Of a stretch of DNA of 64,000 nt, positions 2,478-64,000 are shown one piece after another. Origin of the DNA: Mobula hypostoma. Lineage: Eukaryota. A model generated the notes under the pieces. The model made no database searches, had not been told where the DNA came from, and saw nothing but the letters and a program-made list of their open reading frames with translations. The stretch covers positions 54,996,001-55,060,000 of the forward strand of contig NC_086108.1 in assembly GCF_963921235.1 (NCBI RefSeq), given 5' to 3'. The translations under genes were made by a program, and so were the position numbers. Within the stretch, counting starts at the first letter, position 1. The number at the start of each line of letters is the position of its first letter.

Positions 2478-4055
2478 TGGCAGATGAACTAAGTGAGTAT
2501 TTTGCATTAGTCTTCACTGTGGAAGACACTAGCAGTGTTTCAGAAGAGCGGGAAGAGAAGTGGATGCAGTTACTATTACAAGGGAGAAGGTGCTCAAAAA
2601 GCTGAAAGACCTAAGGGTACATTAGTCACCTGGACCAGATGAACTGCTCCCTAGGGTTCTGAAAGAGCTAGTGTTAGAGATTATGAAGGTATTAATAAAG
2701 ATCTTGCGAAAATCACTGGACTCTGGCATGGCGCCAGAGGACTGGGAAATTACAACTGTCAATTGTTAAGGATGAGGTTATAGAGTACTTGGTGACACAG
2801 GACAAGATAGGACAAAGTCAGCATGGTTTCCTTCAGGGAAAGTCTTGCCAGATGAATCTGTTGGAATTCTTTGAGGAGATTACACATAGGATAGATAAAG
2901 GGGATGCAGTGGATTTTGTATATTTGGACTTTTAGAAGGCCTTTGACAAGGTGCCATGCTTGAAGCTGCTTTCCAAGTTAAGAGCCCATGGCATTACAGG
3001 AAAGTTACTAGCATGGTTAGAGCATTGGCTGATTGGTAGGAGGCAGTGAGTGGAAATTAAAAGATCCTTTTCTGGTTGGCTGCCAGTGGCTAGTGGTGTT
3101 CCGCAGGGGTCGGTGTTGGGAGCACTTTTTTAATGCTGTATATCAATGATTTAGATGATGGAATAGATAGCTTTGTTGCCAAGTTTGCAGATGATACAAA
3201 GATTGGTGGAGGGGCAGGTAGTGTTGAGGAAACAGGTAGGCTACAAAAGGACTTAGACAGATTAGGAGAATGGGCAAAAATGTGGCAAATAAAATACGAT
3301 ATTGGAAAATGCATGGTTATGCACTTTGGTCATAGAAATAAATGTGCAGACTATTTTCTAAATGGGGAGAAAATCCAAAAATCTGAGATGCAAGGGAATT
3401 GAGAGCCCTTGTGCCGAGCACCCTAAAGGTTAACTAGCAGGTAGACTTGATGGTGAGAAAGGCAAATGTAATGTTAGCATTCATATCTAGAGTTCTAGAA
3501 TACAAGAGTAAGGATGTGATGCTGAGGCTTTATAAAGCACTAGTGAGGTGTCACCTTGAGTATTGTGAACAGTTTTGGGCTCCTCATCTAAGAAAAGATA
3601 TACTGGCATTGGAGAGGGTCCAGAGGAGGTTCACAAGGATGATGCTGGGAATTAAAACGTTATATGAAGAATGTTTGTTCGCTCTGGGTCTGTAATCGCT
3701 GGTATTTAGAAGAATGAGGGGGGGATTTCATTTAAACCTTTTGAATGTTGAAAGGCATAGACAATGTAAATGTGGAAAGGATGTTTCCCATGGTGGGGGA
3801 GTCTAGGACAAGAGGGCACAGCCTCAGGATAGAGGGGTGTCCATTTAAAACAGAAATGCAGAGAAATTTCTTTAGCCAGAGGTTGGTGAAATTGTGGAAT
3901 TTGTTACCACAGGCAGCTGTGGAGGCAGGTTGTTGGGTGTATTTAAGGCAGAGCTTGATAGGTTTTCAATTGGACATGACATCAAAGGTTATGGGAAGGA
4001 GGCCAGGGAGTGAAGCTGATGAGGGGAAAGAAAAGATCAGCCATGATTGAATGGT
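2478..4055 (+). mobile_element. CR1-clade LINE, decayed RT region and 3' end
   Basis: SGVPQGSVLG, YINDLD, KFADDTK and HLEYC.QFWAP motifs in broken ORFs. Confidence 0.9.
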
Positions 4056-4280: not shown

Positions 4281-6160
4281 CAACACACATCAAAGTTGCT
4301 GGTGAACGCAGCAGGCCAGGCAGCATCTCTAGGAAGAGGTACAGTCGACATTTCAGGCCGAGACCCTTCGTCAGGACTAACTGAAGGAAGAGTTAGTAAG
4401 AGATTTGAAAGGGGGAGGGGGAGATCCAAAATGATAGGAGAAGACAGGAGGGGGAGGGATGGAGTCAAGAGCTGGACAGGTGATTGGCAAAGGGGATATG
4501 AGAGGATCATGGGACAGGAGGCCTGGGGAGAAAGACAAGGAGGGGGAAACCCAGAGGATGGGCAAGGGGTATAGTCAGAGGGACAGAGGGAGAAAAAGGA
4601 GAGTGAGAGAAAGAATGTGTGTATAAAAATAAATAACGGATGGGGTACGAGGGGGAGGTGGGGCATTAGCAGAAGTTAGAGAAGTCGATGTTCATGCCAT
4701 CAGGTTGGAGGCTACCCAGACGGAATATAAGGTGTTGTTCCTCCAACCTGAGTGTGGCTTCATCTTTACAGTAGAGGAGGCCATGGATAGACATGTCAGA
4801 ATGGGAATGGGATGTGGAATTAAAATGTGTGGCCACTGGGAGATCCTGCTTTCTGGCAGACAGAGCGTAGGTGTTCAGCAAAGCGGTCTCCCAGTCTGCG
4901 CCGGGTCTCGCCAATATATAGAAGGCCACATCGGGAGCACCAGACGCAGTATATCACCCCAGCCGACTCACAGGTGAAGTGTCACCTCACCTGGAAGGAC
5001 TGTCTGGGCCCTGAATGGTGGTAAGGGAGGAAGTGTAAGGGCATGTGTAGCACTTGTTCCGCTTACAAGGATAAGTGCCAGGAAGGAGATCAGTGGGGAG
5101 GTATGAGGGGGAGCGAATGGACAAGGGAGTCGCATAGGGAGCGATACCTGCGGAAAGCGGGGGGGGGCGGGGGGATGGAAAGATGTGCTTAGTGGTTGGA
5201 TCCCGTTGGAGGTGGCGGAAGTTACGGAGAATAATATATTGGACCCGGAGGCTGGTGGGGTGGTAGGTGAGGACCAGAGGAACCCTGTTCCTAGTGGGGT
5301 GGCAGGAGGATGGAGTGAGAGCAGATGTGCGTGAAATAGGGGAAATGCGTTTAAGAGCAGAGTTGATGGTGGAGGAAGGGATGCCCCTTTCTTTAAAAAA
5401 GGAGGACATCTCTCTCGTCCTGGAATGAAAAGCCTCATCCTGAGAGCAGATGCGGCGGAGACGGAGGAATTGCGAGAAGGGGATGGCATTTTTGCAAGAG
5501 ACAGGGTGAGAAGAGGAATAGTCCAGATAGCTGTGAGAGTCAGTAGGCTTATAGTAGACATCAGTGGATAAGCTGTCTCCAGAGATAGAGACAGAAAGAT
5601 CTAGAAAGGGGAGGGAGGTGTCGGAAATGGACCAGGTAAATTTGAGGGCAGGGTGAAAGTTGGAGGCAAAGTTAATAAAGTCAACGAGCTCAGCATGCGT
5701 GCAGGAAGCAGCACCAATGCAGTCGTCGATGTAGCAAAGGAAAAGTGGGGGACAGATACCAGAATAGGTACGGAGCATAGATTGTTCCACAAAGCCAACA
5801 AAAAGGCAGGCATAGCTGGGACCCATATGGGTGCCCCTAGCTACACCTTTAGTTTGGAGGAAGTGGGAGGAGCCAAAGGAGAAATTATTAAGAGTAAGGA
5901 CTAATTCCGCTAGACGGAGCAGAGTGGTGGTAGAGGGGAACTGATTAGGTCTGGAATCCAAAAAGAAGCGGAGAGCTTTGAGACCTTCCTGATGGGGGAT
6001 GGAAGTATATAGGGACTGGACATCCATGGTGAAAATAAAGCGGTGGGGGACAAGGAACTTAAAATCATCGAAAAGTTTAAGAGCGTGAGAAGTGTCATGA
6101 ACATAGGTAGGAAGAGATTGAACAAGGGGGGATAAAACCGTGTCGAGGTATGCAGAAACG
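4281..6160 (-). mobile_element. Penelope-like element (RT plus GIY-YIG endonuclease, pseudo-LTR end)
   Basis: ORF 4987-6222 has MDVQSLYTSI, G..MGPSYACLFVG and YIDD. Downstream frame-shifted YIGETRRRLGDRFAEH (GIY-YIG) and LEEQHLIFRLGSLQPDGMN. Confidence 0.92.
4343..4378 (-). ncRNA. Minimal type-I hammerhead ribozyme motif in the Penelope pseudo-LTR
   Basis: Minus strand reads AGTC-CTGACGA-AGGGTCTCGGCCT-GAAA-T-GTC-GACT: stem I AGTC/GACT, CUGANGA core, stem II, GAAA, GUC cleavage triplet. Confidence 0.65.
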
Positions 6161-7264
6161 TGATTTCCACCCAGAACAGAAATTCCATCGACATTTCCTC
6201 CCAGCTTCCTTGTTTCATGCAACTTTATCTTCAGTGAGTCCTCTGAAGTTTTGCAAGAAGTTTAGGAATAGAGCTTTGGGAATGCCTGAAACTTATTTTT
6301 TTGCTCGAGAGAATAAAGAGGCCGCAGGCAACATCCCTACATGTATACATGCCTGCAGGTTTACTTGGTGCAATGTAGTGTGGCCAGTTTACTTACTAGC
6401 CAATTCGTCTCTGGGGAATTGGAGGAAATTCGAGTATCCTGGGGAATGGGGAAAAGGGGTAAATTCCTAACAACAGCACCAGAAGTCAGTATTGAACTGT
6501 ATGGCCCCAGCGTTTAACATTCAGTTATGGTTTGTATTATTTTAAATATGATGTGTTGGTCGTGGAACATCCAAATCTGCATTAATGGAATGGTAGCACC
6601 ATGCAGCAGCTTTTAAAAATAGTTCCTATTGTCCCATGATACCTGTGAGTTTTAGGTTCTTTCATGTTCAATGACCTGATTATAAGGAGGTCATCCTCGT
6701 CCCCTTGATCTGTTTATTTGCTTTCTCTGTCAAGGGTACCGTATTGGCGTCAGGTGTTAACATTACTGCACACAAACAGATTCCTAGTGAAATGTGTTTG
6801 AGATTGTACTTAAAAGAAGGAAGATTATATTAAGCCACTGTATAAGAGAACCTTTTCCAGTCAAACAAAATCTTCATAGCATTTACACATGCAAGGCTCT
6901 GCCACAATGATGGGTCTTGCTCTTTAGCCCCAGGAAGCAATTTGACTACGGTGGATCCGCAAAACATAAATTCACACTTGCTGTGTACATCAGAGTTAAT
7001 CGCTCAGCACTGACGGCAGGTTCTGGCATATTGGGCCTATACTTGCTTTGTCTGTTGTCTCCCCTTTGAATATAAGCAGTATGTAATCTGTTTACAAGCT
7101 TATGATTCTTCCTCACTGTTCTATTTCTATCTCACTTTAGTTGTCTTACAACTTGATAGCCCATTCTTTGCTTTAGTGAGCTCTCCACTGTTAACTATGT
7201 AAACTGATTTGATGATAGATGAATTGTAAATGGCACTAAGTGAAAACTATGTCTAACATTAAGC

Positions 7265-13170: not shown

Positions 13171-13689
13171 TAGGCTAATGTCTGGGTAGGAGGGATTTAA
13201 TTAGGCAGCATTTAGCTTAATTAGTTCAGTGCATGGTGGGCCAAAGGCCTGTTCCTGTGCATGTCCCACATTTTAAGATTAGCTCCCTGTTTAATCACAT
13301 TGCGGGGCGATCACGTATTGTGGACATCTTGTCCTATTTATCCCTGTTTACATTTCTGAGAGTACTGCTTCAGGGAGGAGTATAGTTCAATAGCAGCTGA
13401 CAACCTGGTGTACTTCACATATTAACTCATTGATTATTATTGGCCTGTGCTATACTTCGGAATTGTCAAAGGAATACAATCAGCTAACAGAACTAAACCT
13501 TTAGACTTGAAAGAGTGCCTGGTAGGAACGTTAACTGCGGTTACTACCACATGTATTGAGTGCTTACAGCTACATAGGTTTTGTTTACAATATTGAGATT
13601 ACTGATCTTGAAGAGTAAAGGCCTTCTCTGACATCCCCGTTCCACTGCGAATTGGTACTTGAGTTGTCTTTTGCATCTGCTGTTTGCAG

Positions 13690-13871
13690 GTTATTTGACC
13701 AGAAGGAAAGCAACACCTCAACTTACAGTAGTAGTTGTGTGGAGCAGCAAGTAATTCAATGCACCATCCCTTCCCCCGATCTCAATCACAAGTATTTCAT
13801 CTGGATAGAGCTGATTACCAATTCTGGAACTTTGCAGTCACCTTTGATGTTTGTCATGCCAATAAATGTAG
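13690..13871 (+). CDS. LEPR: LEPR exon (exon 6 equivalent): LFDQKESNTSTYSSSCVEQQVIQCTIPSPDLNHKYFIWIELITNSGTLQSPLMFVMPINV
   Basis: tttgcAG / GTAAGT; C-terminal part matches human FQSPLMSVQPINMV. Confidence 0.9.
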
Positions 13872-13950
13872 GTAAGTCTGGAAGAATTATGCTCTTGCAG
13901 TGTTTAATGCAATAAACAATTTTGAGTGTATTACCATGAAGGATGAAATG

Positions 13951-18260: not shown

Positions 18261-18893
18261 TGATTTATATCACCTGGCACAATGTTTTTGTGCATGGCAC
18301 CTTCAGTTTATCAACATTCAGTTATGATTAATGCACCTTTGGACTTCTAGTCCAGATTTTCTCTTCATATGATCCACATACAAAGGGGGGCCACCAGGCA
18401 CAACCAGTGGAATCAAATGACACACTTCTAAGCTACTGATATCAACTATTGGACAATCAAAGATTCCCCCACCATCTAAGCCATACTGACTTTTTGCAAC
18501 TACCACTGAGCGGAATTACAGAAAGCTGAAATCCTTCACCACCAGGCTCAAGAACACTACTTCTCTTTAACCAATTGGTTCCTGAACCAACTGGCAAAGC
18601 CTAGCAACACCATGACCGCTTTAATCACTTTGCACTAAAATTGCCTTTTTTGTTCTAATTGTGTTCTTTCTTGTAAAAAATATGCATAATTTATGTTTAA
18701 TTTATGTTTTCTTGGGAATGCTGCTTAGTTGATGCCATGTGCTTCTGGTGCTGCTGCAAGTAAGTTTTTGATTACACCTGCGCAGACATGTATATATGAT
18801 AATAACTTGTTTAATAAAAGAGTGGCCAGCTCCAATATGATATCTCCCATCAGTCACATCAGCCCCTCTTGTCCCACTTCTGCATATCACAGG

Positions 18894-21704
18894 TGTTATG
18901 TTTTGTAACTTCAGAACGTTAAACTATTACAAAGGAAGATATGGGAGCCCGTAATGTGTGTCTAACCAGGTATTACTTTAAGTGAGGTGCACACAGATCA
19001 CATGGTAGTGTCATGACGTATGCAATTCACGTATTTATACATATAACTTGCAATGAATTACTTAAATGAACAAGAATGCTTAATCAACAACATATTTACA
19101 GTACAAGATTACTCAAATATTACTGAAATATTAAATGCTCAACTCTCCCTTCTTAGCTATAAACTCAATATAGAATGCATCTCAACTATACTGTATACAC
19201 AGTATACTATATAATATAACTACTATATACAGACATCCACAGCATAGTAAATTTTGATTGTCCCATTCAGGCATCAAGATTTAGTCGCCGTGGAGGCTTT
19301 GTTACTTTTGTGGTATAACATCTTTCCTGAAAAGGGAGGTTACTCTGCGTGGCAGGTGAGACTTGTGGCTGTGAAAAAAAATCTCAGTTTCTTGGGCCTC
19401 CTCCATGATGGTTGTAGGAGTTGGCTCTAAGACTGCAGGAAATGGTTTTGACAGCTCAGGATACCTTTCTTCTCCTTCCTCCTTCTTCCAGTTTGTGCAT
19501 CTGATCTTGAGAAGGGCCATTTAGTTCACTGAAATATTCTCTTACTAATCCTTCTATTGCTCCTTTTACAATCTGATCTAACCTCTTGGTTTCCTCATCC
19601 ACAACATTCCCCAATGAATCCTCTGTTTTTGTATCTGCATTGACTGCTTTCTTTTTGGCCTTCCATTCATCCCGCTGGGCTTTGATCTTTGCATCTATTT
19701 GGACAAGCAGCTATTTGTCCCCCTCTTGAAGTTCATGCAATTACCTTAAGCACGCAGAGTAAATTTTGGTTCCTTATACTCACAAAAGCGGAATGTTTGC
19801 ATTTTTCTGAAGCTGTTTAACTCTCTTCCAGCTGAAAACCAAGCCACATCTCGCAAGTAACTGCCGGCTTAATACATCAGAAGCTTTCTCAGATATGTTG
19901 GCTACAAAAACTGTTGTAGTCAGACCACTGCTTTTATTACTTTCACAATACCACTGGCCAGCAAGGCCCTTCCTTGGTCCAATATGCTTTCCAACCAGAG
20001 GCACAAAGGTTGGCACCAATACCTGTTTGCCCACTTTTGGGCCACGATTCATGCTGCACAGCATGGAGATAGTTTTGGCATCATCCAGTACCTTTCTTAA
20101 TTCACTTTTAGTTGGCTTTATTGCAGGGGATATGGCATGCAAATGATGAATGGATCTCCAATCATGTTGTAGCTGTCTCAGCCAATCACGTCCCCACAAT
20201 GCTGGCCCTCCTGTTTTTACCACATACAAACTCAATGTGGCTTGCTGGTTTTTGCATTTCACTGTCATGAATGTCATTCTCACAGGAGTTAACTTTTCTC
20301 CTATATAATTTCTTAATTGGATATCTGCAGGTTTCAGTTCAGTGCTTTTGAAATGCCTTTCAAAATCATTTTGTGCAATGACTGAAAGAGCCAAACCTGT
20401 GTCCAATTTCATTTTAATTAATTTGCTGTTCACTTCTGGTGTATATCACGTTGCTTGTCTATTGTTAGTTTTTAAATTGTATACCTCAAAAGATCCCAGT
20501 CCTGTGTCATTCTTGCCATTATCAGACTTTTAATCAACAGCATGTAGATTAGTTCTCATTTTGAAACTCTAGCTTTTTCTCTTTCCTGCACAGTCCACTT
20601 ATTTTGGTCTGCCTGACATGGTCTTTGTATGTGTCCTACTTTGTTGCATTTTCTGCAGATTTCACCTTTAAATCTACATTGGTCTGGTGTATTGTTTGGC
20701 CAGACCAGTTTCTGTTTAGATGTTGCAATTTTGTTCATACTTACTTTAATTCCTGACAATTGTGACAATTTCAACTGCTTTTTTCAATGTAAGCTGTCCT
20801 TCAGCTAGCAGCCATTTTGAATGCTCTCTTGTAAGATTCCACAAACTAATTGATCTTTCAGTATCATTAGCCTCAACATTGAACTGGTAATGTTGAGACA
20901 TTCTTTTCAATTCAGCCATGTATGCTGAAATGGAATCCCCTTCCTTTTGATTCTACTTACGAAGCCTAAAACAGTTTGCAATGATTTTGGTTATAAGTGT
21001 TCCTGCATTATTTTCACAATGGCAGCAAAGCTAATTTCCACTGGTTTCGTTGGAGCAGCTAAACTTTGAAGTGAATTTCCAACATCTGCAGATTTCCTCG
21101 TGTCAGCAAAATTGGTTCTCATTTCTCACTGGCTATTTCATTTGCTTCAAAATACTGTTCAGTCAGCTCAGTATACATAAGCCAGTTATCTGTTGAGCAA
21201 TGAAACACATCAATTTTTCTGATGTAGACAGCCATTTCTGCTATTTTTTATGATTATTATCAACCTCTACTCAATCTTAATGAACCCGTGAATACTTGTG
21301 TTTACTACCTTATCTTTAACTTGAAGGTTTCTGTAAGTGCTGGGCTGTATTTTTTATTCACTGATTCACTGTTCCTCACTATATTTTTTTTTAACTTGGA
21401 AGTTTCACTTCTCTTTAACAGGTTGGTAGCCTTTTCGAGTTTGTTTTAAAAATACCTTGTTGCTACTGTTACATTTTGTAACTTCAAAATATTAAATGAA
21501 TCCAGAGGAAGACACTGGAGTCTGAAATGTGCGATTCTATCTTTAAGCGAGGCGCGCTCGTATCACATGGTAGTGTCGTGACATATGCAATTCGCGTATT
21601 TTTACATATAACCTGTAATGAATTATTTAAACAAACAAGAATGCTTAATCAACAACATTTTTACAAGATTACTTAAGTATTACTGAAATATTAAATACAC
21701 ACCA
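18894..21704 (-). mobile_element. Internally substituted Gypsy/Ty3 LTR retrotransposon (gag, protease, captured RBM25 fragment, integrase tail)
   Basis: LTRs 18894-19144 and 21467-21704 (TGTT start), ACAGG at 18889-18893 and 21705-21709, PPT beside 19145, degenerate PBS beside 21466, CCHC knuckle CRKCNKVGHIQRPC, protease LDTG. Inserted in a Penelope fragment. Confidence 0.9.
19466..20022 (-). pseudogene. RBM25: Processed RBM25 fragment (RRM and following helix) inside the LTR element
   Basis: VLVPT...VGKHIG.RK...TTTVFVANISEKASDVLSRQLLARCGLVFSWKRV / FCEYKEP..TLR / LHELQ.GDK*LLVQIDAKIKAQRDEWKAKKKA...DEETKRLDQIVKGAIEGLVREYFSELNGPSQ, colinear with vertebrate RBM25; intronless, with frameshifts and stops. 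Confidence 0.92.
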
Positions 21705-22505
21705 ACAGGATCCACTTATTTCATGACTCCTTAGCTCACTCTTACACTTCCACCAAACACTCGTCTCCCACAGCACCTTCCAATGCAACAGGAGAAAATA
21801 CACCCATCTGTTCACCTCTTTCCTTCCCACCATCCACTGATTCAAACAATCATTTCGGGTAAAACAATGATTCACTTGCATTTCTTACAATCTAGTCTTC
21901 TTCATTTGGTATTTGCAATGTGGTCTCCTCTGCACTGGGGTAACCAGATTCAGACTGGGTGATCACTTTACCGAACACTTGCATTCAGTCTGCAACAGTG
22001 CTCCTAAGGTTCTCATTGCCTGTCCTGATTCACCACCCTATTCCCACTTTGACCCTTTTCCTACTCTGCTATAGTGAGGCCCAAAGCACATTCGAGGAAC
22101 AACACCTCCATTTTTTTGTGCATTGCAAGACTCAGTATTGAATTCCCCAGTTTCAGATAACTTGCTCTTTCTGTTTTAAGACTGGCCATTTGCACTTACT
22201 ATTCAATTCCTCCTTTCTTTCATTTGTACATTTGTATATTGGGGCTTGCTCAGTACATTCCAATATGCCAGACCATACAATATTACCTGTGCCTCTCAAA
22301 ATTAGCAATATATTCCATAGGCAAAGGAGCCTCACTATCTATTCAATGGAAGTTTTATAGACATTCCTTTAGTTCTATCCATTGTCCTCTTTACTTTCTT
22401 TGTTGCTTAAATAAACTTGCTTTTTCTCTTTTACAGTTCTGATGAGCAGGTTTCTCTATCCACAGATGCTGCCTGAATGGCTCTGTTCTTCCTGCATTTC
22501 TGTGT
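21705..22505 (+). mobile_element. Old Penelope-like fragment, continuing from about 18830-18893 across the Gypsy insertion
   Basis: Decayed LGDHF.EHL and EEQHL motifs plus the pseudo-LTR end gatgctgcctga. Confidence 0.65.
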
Positions 22506-31189: not shown

Positions 31190-31578
31190 TACTTTCCGCA
31201 AGGTTCGCTTACAGTAATTTTGGAAGTTTTTGCATTTATTATGCTACTGTTTTACCCTTGCCTCCCCATGCGATGAGAACAATTTAAGAAGAGAATAGAT
31301 AGATTAAGATTCGATCAGCAATTTCGTAGATTAAGCTTTAGTGCGCCGTACGGTAACATCCTAGGCAGAAAAAGGTGAGGCTATATTTCACGGGTAGGCA
31401 ACCTCAAGCACAAATGATTTTCCAGCATGCGTTATCATTAATTTGAGGCAAAACATAACTAGATTTATTTAAATGGATAATTCCCATATTTCAAGTTTTT
31501 TATGGCATTTATCTGGTCCACCGTCCGCTCATTAATACGCGATCTGGCCCACAGAGGCAAAAGGGTTGCCAACCCCTG
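31190..31578. mobile_element. hAT/Charlie-like DNA transposon end
   Basis: Terminal ...ggttgccaacccctg, the reverse complement of a CAGGGGTTGGCAACC TIR. Confidence 0.5.
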
Positions 31579-31668
31579 CTATATTTCCTTTTATAAGATG
31601 TTTGTCATTTGCTACAGAACTAATGAATAAACATGCAAATATTAAGAAAAATATTTTTCTTTTGACAG

Positions 31669-31956
31669 AAATTACTTATTACCCATCCCAAGTGCTGACA
31701 ACTGTTGGCTCGGATGTCACTGTACGGTGCATTTTCTATAATCGGACTCTGACCAATTATAGTGTAGCCTGGTGGTTAAATATGCATGAGAAAATTCCAG
31801 AAGATAATTATGCTTTAATCAGTGATCATGAAACTAGTGTCACTCTCCTCAATGTAACATCAAATGGACAGTCTGGATTCAACATATTGCAGTGTTGCCT
31901 GCAAGATGAACAAAGAAGTATATGTAACTTTCGCTATGCTGAAATAATTATAATTG
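31669..31956 (+). CDS. LEPR: LEPR exon (exon 9 equivalent), Ig-like domain: ITYYPSQVLTTVGSDVTVRC...WWLNMHEKIP...CNFRYAEIIII
   Basis: ttgacAG / GTAAGG; matches human [20 protein letters not shown]...WWMNLAEKIP...RYAELYVI. Confidence 0.95.
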
Positions 31957-32178
31957 GTAAGGTTTGCTTTAAGTATTAAGTAGCTTGCTTTCTGACACTT
32001 TAAAATACTTTGAATCTCTTATATTATTTTAATCAATTAGTACAGGTGTATAATTATTTCCCACTTTTATACCATTTAAAATAAATTTATCTTCCTCCCT
32101 TGACAGTGCTGGGTTACACTTAAAAATAGCCTGATAATTATTTAGTATGGAAAACAAGTACTTGTACAAGAAAAGCAT

Positions 32179-33318: not shown

Positions 33319-33661
33319 GCAAGTATAATGTCTTTATTTTTATATTGGGGTGAGGTTTAACTCCTGGTTGCTCATTGAAGGATTTTCACTGCCTTAAACT
33401 GATTCGGGCAGGTTTTCAGACTTGTTCAACGTCTTCCATGTATGTCCCCTGTCACCTCTACACCAGATTCACTTCGATAACTGTCAGCTTCACATATTAA
33501 AGTCCCCTTTACATAAAAGTTTATATTGTGAAATCTTCATGAAGGTGCAAATTGGAGCTCTGTCTATTTTATTTGAATAAAATAAACTTCCTGATCCGAT
33601 AAGAATATGACAATCCTTATCAAGGAATTTATCGCAAATGTATTGAAGGAGAGGTTAGAGG

Positions 33662-34120
33662 CTGCATACTGAGTCCCCTCCTTTACTCCCTGTATACCCA
33701 TGACTGTATCACCGCCCACAGCTCCAATCTGCTAATTAAATTTGCCAATGCCACTACATTGATTGGCCTTATCTCAAATAATAATGAAGTGGTCTACAAG
33801 GAAGAAGTCATCTCTCTGACACAGTGGTGTCAAGAAAACAACCTCTCCCTCAATGTCACAAAAACAAAGGAGCAGGTTGTGGATTACAGGAGGAATGGAC
33901 ATGGGCTAACCCCAATTGACATCAATGGATCTGGGGTTGAGACTGATGAACTCACGCTGATTTGAGTATACTCTATATTACATTGACTGCTCTATTTATT
34001 ATAAATTATTGCAAATTACTATGATTGTACATTGCACATTTCGATGGAGACGTAACATAGACTTTTACTCCTCATGTATGTAAAGGATGTAAGAAATAAA
34101 GTCAATTCAATTCAATTAAA
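33662..34120 (+). mobile_element. Rex1/Babar-type LINE, 5'-truncated and internally deleted
   Basis: WCQENNLSLNVTKTKE..VD and (AATTC)n tail. Confidence 0.8.
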
Positions 34121-34434
34121 TTAAATAATATGCCTTAGCTCCAAAGTAAAAACAATATTTCCTTTTAACAGTTTTATCCCATTTTCATTTAAGTGCTCTC
34201 CAGATTGATTGACTATTTGTCATGGTATCAGAACTTTAGGACAAATTGGGTTGAATTTGTCTTGACTCATTTTTTGTACACCATTACTTAAAAACCAGCA
34301 GGGATCCAGTGAATCCAGATACTGGAGGTGAAAGCATAAAGTGCTAATTTCCTGTGCCGTCTAATTTACAAACATATATTATCTGATTTGATCATAACTA
34401 AGTACATTTTTTTTTAATTTTTCTTCTGGAAAAG

Positions 34435-34634
34435 GAAAGAGTCTTGGTGTGATAACTCGCAAGTTGAAAGCAATAGCATTGATGTTGAGGAATGCACAGT
34501 GCAAAAAAATGAATTTGGCCATTGTCTTATCAAGCCAATTAATGTCACTTTTGGCCATGTGATGTGGGTGGAATTCAGCCTTCAAGAGGTGGCGTTCAAA
34601 TCTGAACCAACCTGCGTGATTCCCATGGACATGG
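34435..34634 (+). CDS. LEPR: LEPR exon (exon 11 equivalent), CRH2: KESWCDNSQVESNSIDVEECTVQKNEFGHCLIKPINVTFGHVMWVEFSLQEVAFKSEPTCVIPMDM
   Basis: First AG after the pyrimidine tract, donor GTAAGT, 200 nt; Cys spacing, MW and PTCV.P as in human. Confidence 0.9.
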
Positions 34635-35019
34635 GTAAGTTCAGCTTTAATGGTTCTACTAAGGTGTTAAGGTCCAGCCAAGGTTCAATTTCCTCTTAAC
34701 GTTTACAATTTGAAATCTCCAACTTGTTTGGTGGTCTACTGGGTATCATTTGTATTTGCTACCATAGAGGTTTAATAAGGAAATACATTCTTCTGATTCA
34801 ATCTATGCATTAATAAGTGAGAAACTCCTACCTAGTTAAGAGTGCCTTTTATTGAAAGGGATCAATTTTTTTTTAGGCCTGTATATGGTATAAATGGAGA
34901 ACTTTTTTGTCTTGAAATTGTTAGCTCCACAAACCTTGAATACCTACTAATGGTGAAAGGTTTACCCATATGTTGCCTGGGTGGGGGACTATAAGGAACA
35001 GTTTAATAAATGGATTGTT

Positions 35020-38431: not shown

Positions 38432-41400
38432 TTAGAACATAGAACATAGAATAGTACAGCACAGTACAAGCCCTTCGGCCCACAATGTTGTGCCGACCCT
38501 CAAACCCTGCCTCCCATATAAGCCCCCATCTTAAATTCCTCCATATACCTGTCTAGTAGTCTCTTAAAGTTCACTAGTGTATCTGCCACCACCACTGACT
38601 CAGGCAGGGTATTCCACACACCAACCACTCTCTGAGTAAAAAACCTTCCTCTAATATCCCCCTTGAACTTCCCACCCCTTACCTTAAAGCCATGTCCTCT
38701 TGTATTGAGCAGTGGTGCCCTGGGGAAGAAGTGCTGGCTATCCACTCTATCTATTCCTCATATTATCTTGTACACCTCTATCATGTCTCCTCTTGTCCTC
38801 CTTCTCTCCAAAGAGTAAAGCCCTAGCTCCCTTAATCTCTGATCATAATGCATACTCTCTAAACCAGGCAGCATCCTGGTAAATCTCCTCTGTACCCTTT
38901 CCAATGCTTCCACATCCTTCCTATAGTGAGGTGACCAGAACTGGACACAGTACTCCAAGTGTGGCCTAACCAGAGTTTTATAGAGCTGTATCATTACATC
39001 GCGACTCAAACTCTATCCCTCGACTTATGAAAGCTAACACCCCATAAGCTTTCTTAACTACCTTATCCACCTGTGAGGCAACTTTCAGGGATCTGTACCC
39101 CCAGATCCCTCTGCTCCTCCACACTATCAAGTATCCTGCCATTTACTTTGTACTCTGGCTTGGAGTTTGTCCTTCCGAAGTGTACCACCTCACACTTTTC
39201 CGGGTTGAACTCCATCTGCCACTTCTCAGCCCACTTCTGCATCCTATCAATGTCTCTCTGCAATCTTTGACAATCCTCTACACTATTTACAACACCACCA
39301 ACCTTTGTGTCGTCTGCAAACTTGCCAACCCACCCTTCTACCCCCACATCCAGGTCATTAATAAAAATCATGAAAAGTAGAGGTCCCAGAACAGATCCTT
39401 GTGGGACACCACTAGTCACAATCCTCCAATCTGAATGTACTCCCTCCACCACGACCCTCTGCCTTCTGCAGGCAAGCCAATTCTGAATCCTCCTGACCAA
39501 ACTTCCTTGGATCCCATGCCTTCTGACTTTCTGAATAAGCCTACCATGTGGAACCTTGTCAAATAGATGGATATAGATCACATCCACTGCACTATCCTCA
39601 TCTATATGCCTGGTCACCTCCTCAAAGAACTCTGTCAGGATTGTTAGACACGATCTGCCCTTCACAAAGCTATGCTGACTGTCCCTGATCAGACTATGAT
39701 TCTCTAAATGCCCATAGATCCTATCTCTAAGAATCTTTTCCAGCAGTTTTCCCACCACAGATGTAAGGCTCACTGGTCTACAATTACCCGGACTATCCCT
39801 ACTACCTTTTTTGAACAAGGGGACAATATTCGCCTCCCTCCAATCCTCCGGTACCATTCCCGTGGACAGCGAGGACATAAAGATTCTAGCCAGAGGCTCA
39901 GCAATCTCTTCCCTCACCTCGTGGAGCAGCCTGGGGAATATTCCGTCAGGCCCCGGGGACTTATCCGTCCTAATGTATTTTAACAACTCCAACACCTCCT
40001 CTCCCTTAATATCAACATGCTCCAGAACATCAACCTCACTCATATTGTCCTCACCATCATCAAGTTCCCTCTCATTGGTGAATACCGAAGAGAAGTATTC
40101 ATTGAGGACCTCGCTCACTTCCACAGACTCCAGGCACATCTTCCCACCTTTATCTCTAATCGGTCCTGTCATCCGTCACTCCTGTCATCCTTTTTTCTTC
40201 ACATAATTGAAGAATGCCTTGGGATTTTCCTTTACCCTACTCGCCAAGGCCTTCTCATGCCCCCTCCTTGCTCTTCTCAGCCCCTTCTTAAGCTCCTTTC
40301 TTGCTTTCCTATATTCCTCAATAGACCCATCTGATCCCTGCTTCCTAAACCTCATGTATGCTGCCTTCTTCCACCTGACTAGATTTTCCACCTCAATTGT
40401 CACCCATGGTTCCTTCACCCTACCATTCTTTACCTTCCTCACCGGGACAAATTTATCCCTAACATCCTGCAAGAGATCTCTAAACATCAACCACATGTCC
40501 ATAGTACATTTCCCTGCAAAAACATCATCCCAATTCACACCTGCAAGTTCTAGCCTTATAGCCTCATAGTTTGCCCTTCCCCAATTAAAAATTTTCCTGT
40601 CCTCTCTGATTCTATCCTTTTCCATGATAATGCTAAAGGCCAGGGAGCGGTGGTCACTGTCCCCCAGATGCTCACCCACTGAGAGATCTGTGACCTGACC
40701 CGGTTCATTACATAGTACTAGATCTAGTATGGCATTTCCCCTAGTCGGCCTGTCCACATACTGTGACAGGAATCCGTACTGGACACACTTAACAAACTCT
40801 GCCCCATCTAAACCCTTGGAACTAATCAGGTGCCAAATCAACATTAGGGAAGTTAAAGTCACTCATGATAACAACCCTGTTATTTTTGCACCTTTCCGAA
40901 ATCTGCCTCCCAATCTGCTCCTCCGTATCTCTGCTGCTACCAGGGGGCCTGTAGAATACTCCCAATAGAGTAACTGCTCCCCTCCTGTTCCTGACTTCCA
41001 CCCATACTGACTCAAAAGAGGATCCTGCTACATTACCCACCCTTTCTGTAGCTGTAATACTATTCCTGGCCAGTAATGCCACCCCTCCTCCTCTTTTTCC
41101 GCCCTCTCTATCCCTTTTAACGCACTGAAATCCAGGAATATTGAGAATCCATTCCTGCCCTGGTGCCAGCCAAGTCTCTGTAATGACCACTGCATCATAA
41201 TTCCGTGTATGTATCCAAGCTCTCAGTTCATCACCTTTGTTCTTGATGCTTCTTACACTGAGGTACACACATATCAGCCCTTCTACCTTACTGTCTTTAC
41301 ACCGTTTATTCTGCTTCTCTTTCCTCAAAGACTCTCTATATGTTAGATCTGGCTTTAATCCATGCACTTCTTTCACTGCTTTATTGCTCTGGGTCCCATC

Positions 41401-42440
41401 CCCCTTGCAAATTAGTTTAAACCCTCCCGAACCATGCTAGCAAACCTACCTGCAAGGATATTGCTCCCCCTCGAGTTCAGGTGCAACCCATCCAATCTGT
41501 ACAGGTCCCAGAAAAATCCAAAACCCTGCTCCCTGCACCAACTCCTCAGCCACGCATTCAACTGCCATCTCCTCCAATTCTTACCATCACTGTCACGTAG
41601 CACTGACAGCAATCCTGAGAATGCCACCCTTGAGATCCTGTTCTTCAGCCTTCTGCCTAGTTCCCGAAACTCACACTTCAGGACCTCATCCCTCTGCCTG
41701 CCTATGTTGTTGGTCCCAAAATGTATCACGACTTCTGGTTGCTTTCCCTCTTGTACCAGGATGTCGTGCACCCGGTCAGAGACATCCCGGACCCTGGCAC
41801 CCGGGAGGGAACAAACCATGCGGGTGTCCTTCTCACGTCCAGAAAATCTCCTGTCTGCTCCCCTGACTATAGAGTCTCCAATGATGACAGCTCTCCTCTT
41901 CTCTGTCCTACGCTTCTGCACCACCGGGTCAGACTCAGTGCCGGAGGCCCTGCCACCATGGCTCACACCTGGTCGGTTGTCCCCGCCAACAGTATCCAGG
42001 ATGGTAAACTTATTATTCAGGGGAATGGCTACAGGGGTGCTCTGCACTACCTGTCTGCTCACTTTCACTTTCCCCCCTCTGACTGTCACCCAACGACCTG
42101 CTTCTGACAGCCTAGGTGTGACTACCTCCCTTAGCTCTCATCTATGATTGCCTCATTCTCCCTTACGAGTCGAAGGTCATCCAGGTGCTGCTCCAGATTC
42201 CTTACACGGTCTTCCAGATCGCCCAGCCGTATGCTGTTCTGGCAGATGTGACTCTGTGGTAGAGGGGCATTCCTCCAAGACTGCCACATCTCACAAGAGA
42301 GGCACATCACCATCTCAGGAGGCATTGTAAAGACTAACTGCGAGCAAGCTCGTCCTCCGCCTCTTCTCGTCGAAGCCTCTTGAGTCAAAGCCTCAAAGCT
42401 CCACTCCTTCACTGGCCCACTCACTCACTGGCCGCTTTCC
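38432..42440 (-). mobile_element. Near full-length CR1 LINE (ORF1 Cys-rich plus SGNH esterase; ORF2 APE endonuclease plus RT), frame-shifted
   Basis: ORF1 GDSIVRG..PGARV..GTNN..DGLHL; endonuclease ITETWL..YRPP..DFN..LDLV..SDH; RT SGVPQGSVLGPLLF..FADDTK; (TTCTATG)n tail. Sits inside a Rex1 remnant. Confidence 0.95.
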
Positions 42441-58059: not shown

Positions 58060-58680
58060 CAAATTAGCCCACTGATAATGCCACAGCCTCTGCTTTCCAC
58101 TCCAGCCTGTCCCACCTGGAAAACGGTGCCGCATACACCAGAGTGCTGTTTATCGATTTCAGCTCAGTGTTTGATACGATCATTCTTCAGAGGCTGGTGG
58201 ATAAACTGTACCGATCGGGTCTCATTACCTTTCTCTGTAACTGGATCTTGGACTACTTGACAGAAACACCACAGCCAGCCCGCGTTGACAGCAATGTCTG
58301 TGGCTCCATCATGCTGAGCACTGGCACCCCTCGTGGCTGTAGGCTCAGCCTGCTACTGATGCATGGCTGCACTGATGGATCCAGTTCAAACTGAGTAAGC
58401 AGGTTTGCTGAAGGCACAACAATGGTTGGCCTCATTAACAATGACAACAAGACAGTGTACAGGGAGGATGTAGAGTCATTCGAGCACAGTGTGGACAAGA
58501 CTAAAGAGGTGATTGTGGACTTCAGGAAGGTGCAGGCTGACCTGTTCTTACTGCACATAAATGGCTCATCCATGTGGACAGTTAGGAGCACGAAGTTTCT
58601 GGGAGTGTACATGGTGGACGATCTCACCTGGTCTCTCAATGCCATCTCTTTGGTCAAGAGAGCACATCGTTGGCTGAAGT
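58060..58680 (+). mobile_element. Rex1/Babar-type LINE fragment
   Basis: LFIDFSSVFDTI, CNWILDYL and KTKEVIVDFRK. Confidence 0.8.
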
Positions 58681-63332: not shown

Positions 63333-64000
63333 TTAAATACAAGTATAAAGCATGAAATAATTGCCTAAGTATTCACTCCCTTTAATATGACACACCAAAT
63401 CATCACTGGTGCAACCAATTGGCTTTAGAAGTCACATAATTAGTTAAATGGAGCTCTGATTTTGGAGACCTGTGTACAGTCAAGGCATTTGAATTGATTG
63501 TAGTAAAAATACACCTGTATCTGGAAGGTCCAACTGCTGGTGAGTCAGTATCCTGACAAAAGCTACACCATGAAGACAACAGCACACTCCAAACAACTCC
63601 ATGAAAATGTTATTGAAAAGCACAATAAATGGATACAAGGAAATATCCAAGTCACTGAATATCCCTTGGAGTACAATTAAGTCAATCATCAAGAAATGGA
63701 AAGAATATGGCACAGCTGTAAATCTGCTTAGAGCAGGCTGTCCTCAAACACTGAGTGACCATGCAAGAAGGGGACCAGTCAGGGAGGCCACCAGGAGACC
63801 TATAACAGCTCTGGCTTCAGTGGCTGAGATAGGAGAGACTGCACATACAACATCTGTAGCCCGAGTGTTTCACCAGTCACAGCTTTATGGGAGAGTGGCA
63901 AAGAGACAACCACTGCTGAGAAAAACTGACGTGAAATCTCAGCTAGAGTTTGCCAGAAGGCATGCGGGAGACTCTGAATTCATATGGAAGAAGGTTCTAT

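Follow-up and report, generated by a model that had tools for sequence, protein, structure and literature searches.

How does a retrotransposon come to carry exons of a host splicing regulator where the enzymes for its own copying should stand, and did such an exchange happen once or repeatedly? The question is raised by a 2811-bp element on the minus strand of a 64,000-nt stretch of the Mobula hypostoma genome (NC_086108.1, positions 54,996,001 to 55,060,000; hereafter the window), at window positions 18894-21704. A sequence-only reading of this DNA had described it as a Gypsy long terminal repeat (LTR) element that had acquired a piece of spliced RBM25 messenger RNA (mRNA) in exchange for reverse transcriptase (RT), RNase H and integrase, possibly as a member of a non-autonomous family, and that lies antisense in an intron of LEPR. 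The element is old and dead, a single copy within a non-autonomous Ty3/Gypsy family, whose chimeric form kept both LTRs, the primer-binding site (PBS), gag, protease and the polypurine tract (PPT), and the comparisons made here indicate that the family arose once, from a single founding chimera. The coordinates of all features are collected in Table 1.

Two direct LTRs, flanked by a 5-bp duplication (ACAGG) within the 4-6 bp range of Ty3/Gypsy elements, delimit the copy in the window. LTRs of the family have the form TG...CA, as does the 5' LTR here, while the 3' LTR begins with AG where its relatives have TG. A PPT directly precedes the 3' LTR, and one base past the 5' LTR lies a PBS-like stretch, decayed in this copy, which in most other copies reads TGGCGAYGAGG, an 11-mer that begins with TGG. 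Between these sites gag and a retroviral-type protease are encoded: the protease, with its DTG motif, is the sole match above the Pfam cut-off among the seven open reading frame (ORF) pieces of the element scanned, and the CCHC zinc knuckle of gag falls just under its cut-off, with the motif itself readable. A stop-free stretch of 221 amino acids (19780-20445) runs through the protease and straight into host-derived sequence (the cargo), and RT, RNase H and the integrase core are missing, only the C-terminal end of pol being left. The LTR pair, the priming sites, the target-site duplication and the minus-strand gag and protease predicted from the sequence were thus all recovered, the PBS in decayed form.

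The cargo derives from RBM25, as had been proposed. The 106-residue translation of 19780-20100 found two matches among 62 candidates, both of RBM25 type, namely an 'RNA-binding protein 25-like' protein of the shark Heptranchias perlo (E 2.7e-24, 67% identity), which carries an RRM (PF00076), and RBM25 of the teleost Gouania (E 2.8e-11). No RRM match was obtained in a Pfam scan of the broken cargo of the window copy; a PDB sequence search with two cargo pieces gave unrelated proteins at best (E 0.13 and 0.26, with a TIAR RRM at E 0.89); and the 221-residue frame of protease and cargo, searched at near lengths, retrieved five proteins out of 118 candidates, all of them aligned over the exon B region of RBM25 only (coverage 26-38%), with no annotated chimera among them.

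Comparison with the host gene shows that the cargo is spliced. RBM25 was located through the PWI end of the teleost protein on the minus strand of G000:C1 at about 99.8 Mb, and 200 kb were fetched around it. The cargo aligns with five host exons (here A to E) at 84-88% DNA identity; the borders of these exons are canonical (GT-AG), and the introns of 3.4, 1.7, 2.8 and 4.8 kb that stand in the host at the four cargo exon joints are all missing from the element. Retained introns, from 1.7 to 4.8 kb in length, can therefore be rejected at all four joints, in agreement with the proposal of an intronless insert in the sense of the element, although the insert measures 606 nt rather than the roughly 560 nt first given for this site. 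The exons are those of the RRM region, the PWI exons (G000:C1 99791418-99802552) lying outside the cargo, which is therefore a fragment of RBM25 and not a copy of the gene. Neither a poly(A) nor a separate duplication was found at the cargo ends in the window copy. A search for upstream RBM25 exons with another database protein, whose N-terminus is intron-derived, placed none.

In the protein model of Heptranchias perlo, exon A is spliced to an acceptor of exon B that lies 12 nt further upstream, which adds the residues CFTQ. In the corresponding region of G000:C1 (99829175-99828990) these 12 nt contain a stop codon, and the cargo of the element uses the downstream acceptor.

What the cargo has displaced can be read from its relatives. 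Eleven other gag-protease loci divide into six that carry the cargo and five in which RT motifs and RNase H follow from precisely this position onwards, so that the cargo takes the place of RT, RNase H and integrase, as the sequence-only reading had it; because the cargo is also free of introns, the element corresponds to an LTR-mediated retrocopy, in which intron-free host sequence replaces internal sequence of the element. RNase H (PF17917) was identified in two of six parental ORFs scanned (E 4e-10 and 6e-11); RT gave no Pfam match on four short parental ORFs, its motifs being read by eye. Among named proteins, the parental RNase H piece is closest to K02A2.6-like pol proteins of Gypsy elements, which have RVT_1, RNase H and rve (8 matches among 94 candidates), and the order protease-RT-RNase H of the five parental loci is followed in these nearest database relatives by rve after RNase H.

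Behind the cargo the parental element resumes with the end of pol. A profile built from the C-terminal 45 residues of six Gypsy pol proteins and searched against 18,166 six-frame pieces matched the tails of eight chimeric copies (E 2.9e-7 to 0.003), always on the sense strand, among them that of the window copy at 19270-19383 (minus strand, E 2.1e-5); nothing else among these pieces scored as well, the next-best match (E 0.2) likewise lying in a tail. Alignments of tblastn to Gypsy pol stop in the tail at the last residue of pol, and the tail (19155-19464) found no match in the fetched RBM25 region, including the introns after exons E and I. These results bear out the earlier suggestion that an integrase tail follows the cargo. 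The reading frame of the cargo is not continued into the pol frame at this junction.

The 3' junction, ...AAAG|GTGTCCAGAGCTGTCAGAACC..., is common to 15 of the 16 copies compared and sits in a purine run, and the cargo in front of it varies in length. In the longest one (copy L004) exon E is followed by exons F, G and H and by the first 28-30 nt of exon I, all spliced; L024 (reaching exon G), L008, L017 and L022 are intermediate; and in 10 of the 16 copies, the window copy included, the purine run of exon E passes directly into the last 15-20 nt of the exon I piece, a share inflated by the fact that nine of the 16 loci were selected for matching the short form of the window best. Host exon I, the ninth counting from A, starts at about 99809257 and extends well past the breakpoint, so that the original 3' junction lay inside an exon, 28-30 nt from its start and away from any splice site. 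The series is most simply explained by a single capture that took in exons A to I and by later, nested deletions between purine-rich repeats. The run of purines immediately in front of 19465 is what is left of the ninth exon rather than the end of the fifth, and the window copy is an internal-deletion derivative, in which the apparent 3' switch point represents the original exon I junction moved next to exon E. The proposal of a switch at a purine-rich stretch near 19465-19475 thus stands as to the purine run; the place is not a simple breakpoint between mRNA and element, having been brought about by later deletion.

The 5' junction is of a different kind. Parental copies read ...GATGATGCCACA GCA GTGTTCAAGG... 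at this point, chimeric copies ...GATGATGCCACA ACT GTCTCCATGCTG..., and the host gene ...ccttttcag|GTCTCCATGCTG...: the cargo starts with nucleotide 1 of the internal 48-nt exon A, exactly behind the host acceptor. The first nucleotide of exon A (G) is kept in 11 of 16 copies and ACT together with this G in eight, and at this end the cargo is at once in the pol frame, in the native frame of RBM25 and in the sense of the element. ACT agrees with the parental GCA at one position and with the parental variant ACA at two. The parental sequence has a GT in the register of the initial GT of exon A, a putative splice donor, and from this GT onwards parent and exon A have 6 of 10 bases in common (GT.T.CA.G). 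For a joint of the retroviral type, the acceptor side is exact and the candidate donor (GCA|GTGTTC) a weak match to the consensus. A junction at an exon start fits a spliced read-through transcript better than a random switch at a microhomology, and this is where the earlier proposal of capture by microhomology-guided switching probably needs revision, its transduction part being upheld.

The same chimera is present throughout the genome. A 24-mer across the 5' junction gave 1009 matches at up to three mismatches on many contigs (49 exact among the matches listed) and none for the reversed control, against 2069 matches, and again none for the control, of the corresponding 24-mer of the RT-bearing parent. 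A 661-nt query comprising the cargo and both junctions returned 2862 first-look candidates, which are not a copy number, in the 3.48-Gb assembly of the window. The 40 matches that were scored all show 80-84% identity and start at or near query base 1, within the element and 30 nt upstream of the cargo; 20 of them span both junctions and 20 stop 23-46 nt short of the 3' junction, and no RBM25 retrocopy outside the context of the element was found among them. Since both junctions, in the same architecture, recur in 15 other fetched loci, and given 1009 matches against none for the control, a chance match is excluded; dispersed full-length chimeric copies with LTR pairs of their own indicate secondary retroposition. 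All 16 copies examined are broken, the longest open sense stretch of the 15 others being 99-201 codons as opposed to 221 in the window copy. The suspected multi-copy, non-autonomous family was thus confirmed, and of the observations that could have spoken against the capture (a best match other than RBM25, a poly(A) and duplication of the insert's own, RBM25 introns, or unsupported junctions) none was made.

The divergence of the copies places the spread in the distant past. The two LTRs of the window copy differ at 44 of 238 aligned sites (18.5%; Kimura two-parameter (K2P) distance 0.217), in agreement with the divergence among copies, for which K2P over the cargo averages 0.197 (105 pairs). 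With a mean of 0.146 between copies and host (15 copies), this corresponds to about 0.10 for each copy since its insertion, with about 0.05 left for stem and host branch together. At 23 sites the family as a whole differs from the host gene, at least 70% of the copies having a non-host base there; 20 of these differences fall on third codon positions and 20 are synonymous, while those found in at most two copies are spread evenly over the codon positions (193, 202 and 177). The plain reading of these patterns would be that, once the capture had taken place, all change in the host gene was synonymous while the copies decayed neutrally, with a short stem that points to a burst soon after capture; the cargo may, alternatively, have been under selection along the stem. 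With a rate of 1e-9 substitutions per site per year, which is assumed and not measured, the insertion would be of the order of 100 million years old.

The two LTRs of the window copy also differ in CpG content, with eight CpG dinucleotides in the 5' LTR (21467-21704) against four in the 3' LTR (18894-19144), and several of the differences between them are CpG to TpG or CpA changes on the side of the 3' LTR. The imbalance hints at unequal methylation or decay of the two.

Sequencing data of other organisms extend the distribution of the family. Words sampled from the stretch were found at 48-62% in runs of the source organism, at 23-28% in a second organism and at about 10% in six more. Contigs of three other organisms, at a likeness of at least 88%, covered all 30 bins (27,488, 28,100 and 25,936 pieces), which indicates that the family is present in their runs. 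One contig from organism B (19408-19562) crosses the 3' junction with 1 difference, and another from organism F (19355-19550) does so with 18 differences; no contig bridging the 5' junction was found among the pieces listed, a small fraction of the total of about 86,000. In organism F, a contig of 1527 nt carries the outer flank and the first 27 nt of the 5' LTR at 92% identity, which remains under the 31-letter rule and is suggestive of an orthologous insertion. With junctions in about a thousand loci and in contigs of other organisms, an assembly artefact was rejected. No RNA run containing the stretch was found in the run listing. A run guessed to be RNA yielded 210 pieces, deepest at 19535-19668 with host-like letters, where they look like true RBM25 mRNA rather than RNA of the element; one piece of this presumed RNA run (18764-19021) is identical to the locus and may be either intron RNA or DNA.

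How the chimera arose is, in the account favoured here and held with considerable confidence, a matter of read-through transcription, splicing and one template switch, which made a single Gypsy-RBM25 chimera that would then have been copied in trans to at least about 1000 loci. A K02A2.6-like parental copy would have sat upstream of exon A in sense orientation; its read-through transcript would have been spliced from the weak GT after the protease to the acceptor of exon A, and normally from there onwards; and this RNA would have been packaged with parental RNA, so that a single RT template switch in the purine-rich start of exon I could lead into the 3' end of pol. The outcome itself is shown by the copies: the parent lost everything between the first codons after the protease and a point about 65 codons before the pol stop, and received in exchange a stretch of spliced RBM25 mRNA that starts with nucleotide 1 of exon A and ends 28-30 nt inside exon I. 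Mobilisation in trans by the parent is suggested by the shared LTR and gag-protease together with the missing RT and integrase, so that parental RT and integrase would have been responsible for its spread. Shorter subfamilies would then have arisen when parts of the cargo were deleted between its purine-rich runs, with the window copy as the commonest short form. Several points weigh against this account. The 3' breakpoint, with any microhomology at it, is placed from the chimeric copies and the host gene alone; the putative donor is a poor match to the consensus; the ACT of the family requires one or two substitutions, or untemplated bases, from the GCA of the five parental copies; no sense-oriented parental remnant was found in the 200 kb around RBM25, where two related LTRs are antisense; junction-word counts are not counts of curated copies; and the similarity of parent and exon A from the GT onwards could equally have brought a microsimilarity-guided switch to this point.

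That last possibility leads to a double template switch on co-packaged mature RBM25 mRNA, in which RT would have passed from parental RNA into the mRNA within exon I and back again just after the protease, the exon start being a coincidence and the later history of the family unchanged. The 6 of 10 bases shared at the switch point and the position of the 3' junction within a purine run count in its favour, and the odd ACT fits the microsimilarities and de novo bases described by Tan et al. 2016 (PMC5131818). However, the cargo begins with nucleotide 1 of an internal exon with a normal acceptor, where a random breakpoint would come within one base of an exon boundary in about 1-2% of cases (a rough estimate that takes an mRNA a few kb long to contain a few dozen boundaries), and a mature mRNA would have brought upstream exons, of which the cargo has none; the double switch is thus rated as a tentative alternative, on the doubtful side. 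The exon-start junction would likewise be left unexplained by a chimera formed at the DNA level, through deletion or illegitimate recombination between a Gypsy copy and an existing intronless RBM25 copy that was mobilised later. Nothing specific favours this scenario, for which a single founding event about 0.1 substitutions per site ago leaves some room; it requires an additional, unobserved intronless intermediate, and the 40 scored matches include no RBM25 retrocopy outside the element, so that it appears very unlikely. A processed pseudogene of RBM25 made by a long interspersed nuclear element (LINE), inserted in a Gypsy element or itself the target of one, has in its favour a LINE with RT and endonuclease in the window (e.g., 39066-41436, minus strand), but is rejected as wholly improbable: the cargo ends show neither poly(A) nor duplication, the cargo substitutes for RT, RNase H and integrase rather than interrupting them, and both junctions are identical in 15 other loci, the 5' junction recurring 1009 times. 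The spliced read-through transcript with one later switch would account for the exon start, and its components have counterparts in known systems.

Host gene fragments that are transcribed and re-transposed within LTR elements are reportedly known from plants, in maize Bs1 (Elrouby and Bureau) and in the gene-carrying LTR retrotransposons of rice (Wang et al. 2006). These resemble the present family in being LTR elements with host fragments that are transcribed and re-transposed, and differ in carrying several genes per element and, in the case of Bs1, in a low copy number. In non-autonomous families such as ETn/MusD and the LARD and TRIM elements, the autonomous partner shares LTR, PBS and PPT, and the copy number can rival that of the partner; unlike the RBM25 family, they have lost coding capacity without gaining host exons. 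The route of read-through and splicing in retroviral oncogene capture is said to go back to Swain and Coffin 1992.

Read-through, splicing and helper dependence are likewise described for oncogene capture by retroviruses (PMC4276931), to which three traits of the chimera correspond: spliced exons of the host stand in for coding sequence of the element, a host acceptor marks the 5' joint whereas the 3' joint falls within an exon, and the product is defective, with a probable need of a helper. It departs from the acute transforming retroviruses in being a Ty3/Gypsy retrotransposon, with no env seen, in a cartilaginous-fish-like germ line, in carrying a splicing-regulator fragment that shows no sign of growth advantage, and in having spread, as far as can be told, within a genome and not between cells. 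LTR-mediated retroposition, including re-transposition of the chimera, has been described in animals by Tan et al. 2016 (PMC5131818): microsimilarity, with a median of 6 bp, accompanied 25 of 29 junctions, three junctions had de novo bases (2-26 bp), and two Drosophila retrocopies had more than one insertion site. Like those retrocopies, the chimera has a piece of spliced mRNA in place of part of the internal ORFs, both LTRs, no poly(A), some similarity and three unassigned bases at its 5' junction, and the form of a pseudo-LTR element that can be retroposed again. The animal retrocopies are young and of single or few copies, in contrast with a junction word found 1009 times in copies about 20% apart, and the present chimera differs further in keeping gag and protease, in a cargo that is in the pol frame and in a 5' junction exactly on an exon start. 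Within known LTR-mediated retroposition the family is thus notable for its copy number, its in-frame fusion of gag-protease and cargo, and its exon-start junction. Among the papers listed by a literature search there was no report linking RBM25 with an LTR retrotransposon retrocopy, and nothing relevant on the capture of a host gene by an elasmobranch LTR retrotransposon.

The family offers a vertebrate case in which an LTR element that exchanged its enzymes for host exons became, with about half the junction count of its parent, a successful parasite of that parent. Its exon-start junction is a testable link between LTR-mediated retroposition and the capture route of retroviral oncogenes, its copies preserve an old form of RBM25 mRNA, with exons A to I spliced, and about a thousand RBM25 look-alike fragments carry the risk of misleading gene annotation. 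A further question is whether small RNAs from silenced copies interfere with RBM25, an essential splicing regulator. A more far-reaching idea, speculative and considered improbable, is that the donor after the protease is recurrently leaky and splices onto host exons, with several cargo families as the result, that a Gag-protease-RRM fusion aids packaging or escape from silencing, and that the copies give rise to RBM25 small RNAs. If so, dispersed copies of RBM25 exons, many of them antisense in introns, could feed small RNAs directed against the host message, and an advantage of the fusion in packaging or escape from silencing would account for the family having about half as many copies as its helper. 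Such a small-RNA conflict has been discussed for gene-capturing plant transposons (bioRxiv 10.1101/777037).

Table 1. Coordinates of the element, of the host RBM25 exons and of neighbouring features (window positions unless G000:C1 is given).
Feature	Position	Strand	Basis or remark
Target-site duplication ACAGG, 3' side of element	18889-18893	.	identical to 21705-21709
3' LTR, 251 nt	18894-19144	-	LTR-pair alignment
Polypurine tract AAGAAGGGAG, immediately upstream of 3' LTR	19145-19154	-	read from sequence
Parental tail: C-terminal end of integrase (final ~65 codons of pol), then 3' untranslated stretch	19155-19464	-	pol C-terminus profile; tblastn
pol stop TGA	19267-19269	-	read from sequence
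Captured spliced RBM25 fragment, 606 nt, exons F-H deleted	19465-20070	-	protein matches; host-exon alignment; longer copies
Exon I remnant	about 19465-19482	-	cargo
Exon E, part	about 19483-19634	-	cargo
Exon D	about 19635-19795	-	cargo
Exon C	about 19796-19851	-	cargo
Exon B	19852-20022	-	cargo
Exon A	20023-20070	-	cargo
ACT, three bases between parental sequence and exon A	20071-20073	-	parent: GCA (ACA in some copies) in same register, then GT
gag-protease region of parental Gypsy family, at least 5 frame pieces in window copy	20074-21235	-	72-75% identity to 40 scored loci
Aspartic protease, DTG motif, Pfam RVP	20167-20436	-	E 2.4e-5, 25 bits vs cut-off 20.7
gag CCHC zinc knuckle, PF00098	20616-20660	-	18.7 bits, below 20.8 cut-off; CX2CX4HX4C readable
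32-nt patch of unrelated high-copy repeat, swapped for equal length of gag, window copy only	21072-21103	-	copy alignment
Decayed PBS-like stretch TAGCAACAAGG, one base past 5' LTR	21455-21465	-	comparison with other copies
5' LTR, 238 nt	21467-21704	-	LTR-pair alignment
Target-site duplication ACAGG, 5' side of element	21705-21709	.	identical to 18889-18893
Host exon A	G000:C1 99832633-99832586		48 nt
Host exon B	G000:C1 99829160-99828990		171 nt
Host exon C	G000:C1 99827251-99827194		58 nt
Host exon D	G000:C1 99824415-99824255		161 nt
Host exon E	G000:C1 99819430-about 99819253		about 178 nt
ObR_Ig	13619-13912	+	Pfam, E 2.8e-12
Lep_receptor_Ig	31536-31976	+	Pfam, E 1.7e-10
ObR_Ig	34418-34696	+	Pfam, E 1.7e-11
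LINE region with RT (RVT_1), endonuclease (Exo_endo_phos) and upstream GDSL-lipase-like ORF	39066-42137	-	E 1.2e-29, 1.8e-9, 2.2e-9
Tc1/mariner-type transposase DNA-binding domains HTH_SB and HTH_Tnp_Tc3_2, running off window end	63574-63999	+	Pfam

The surroundings of the element were surveyed with 80 of the 259 ORFs of at least 62 codons outside it. The element lies between the first ObR_Ig domain and the Lep_receptor_Ig domain, both on the plus strand, which agrees with the earlier placement and indicates an antisense position within an intron of a leptin-receptor-type (LEPR-like) gene, inside which the window lies. Besides the LINE region, further RT fragments are found at 4990-6261, 33603-33962 and 58068-58391.

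Two LTRs of the same family lie antisense upstream of exon A of the host RBM25 gene, at distances of 44 kb (G000:C1 99876650-99876890) and 74 kb (99906436-99906635), and given the thousands of copies they are probably chance neighbours. Among the chimeric copies, L015 has an unrelated repeat of about 800 nt inserted in RBM25 exon D (about 3030-3840), which occurs many times in the 200 kb around RBM25. At the site of the gag patch of the window copy (21072-21103) all 17 other aligned family copies have normal gag sequence; the patch is identical at 30-32 of 32 positions to sites in loci L041 and L045 of the RBM25 region, coincides with a spike of read depth in all four runs, and may represent a short conversion tract or a brief template switch.

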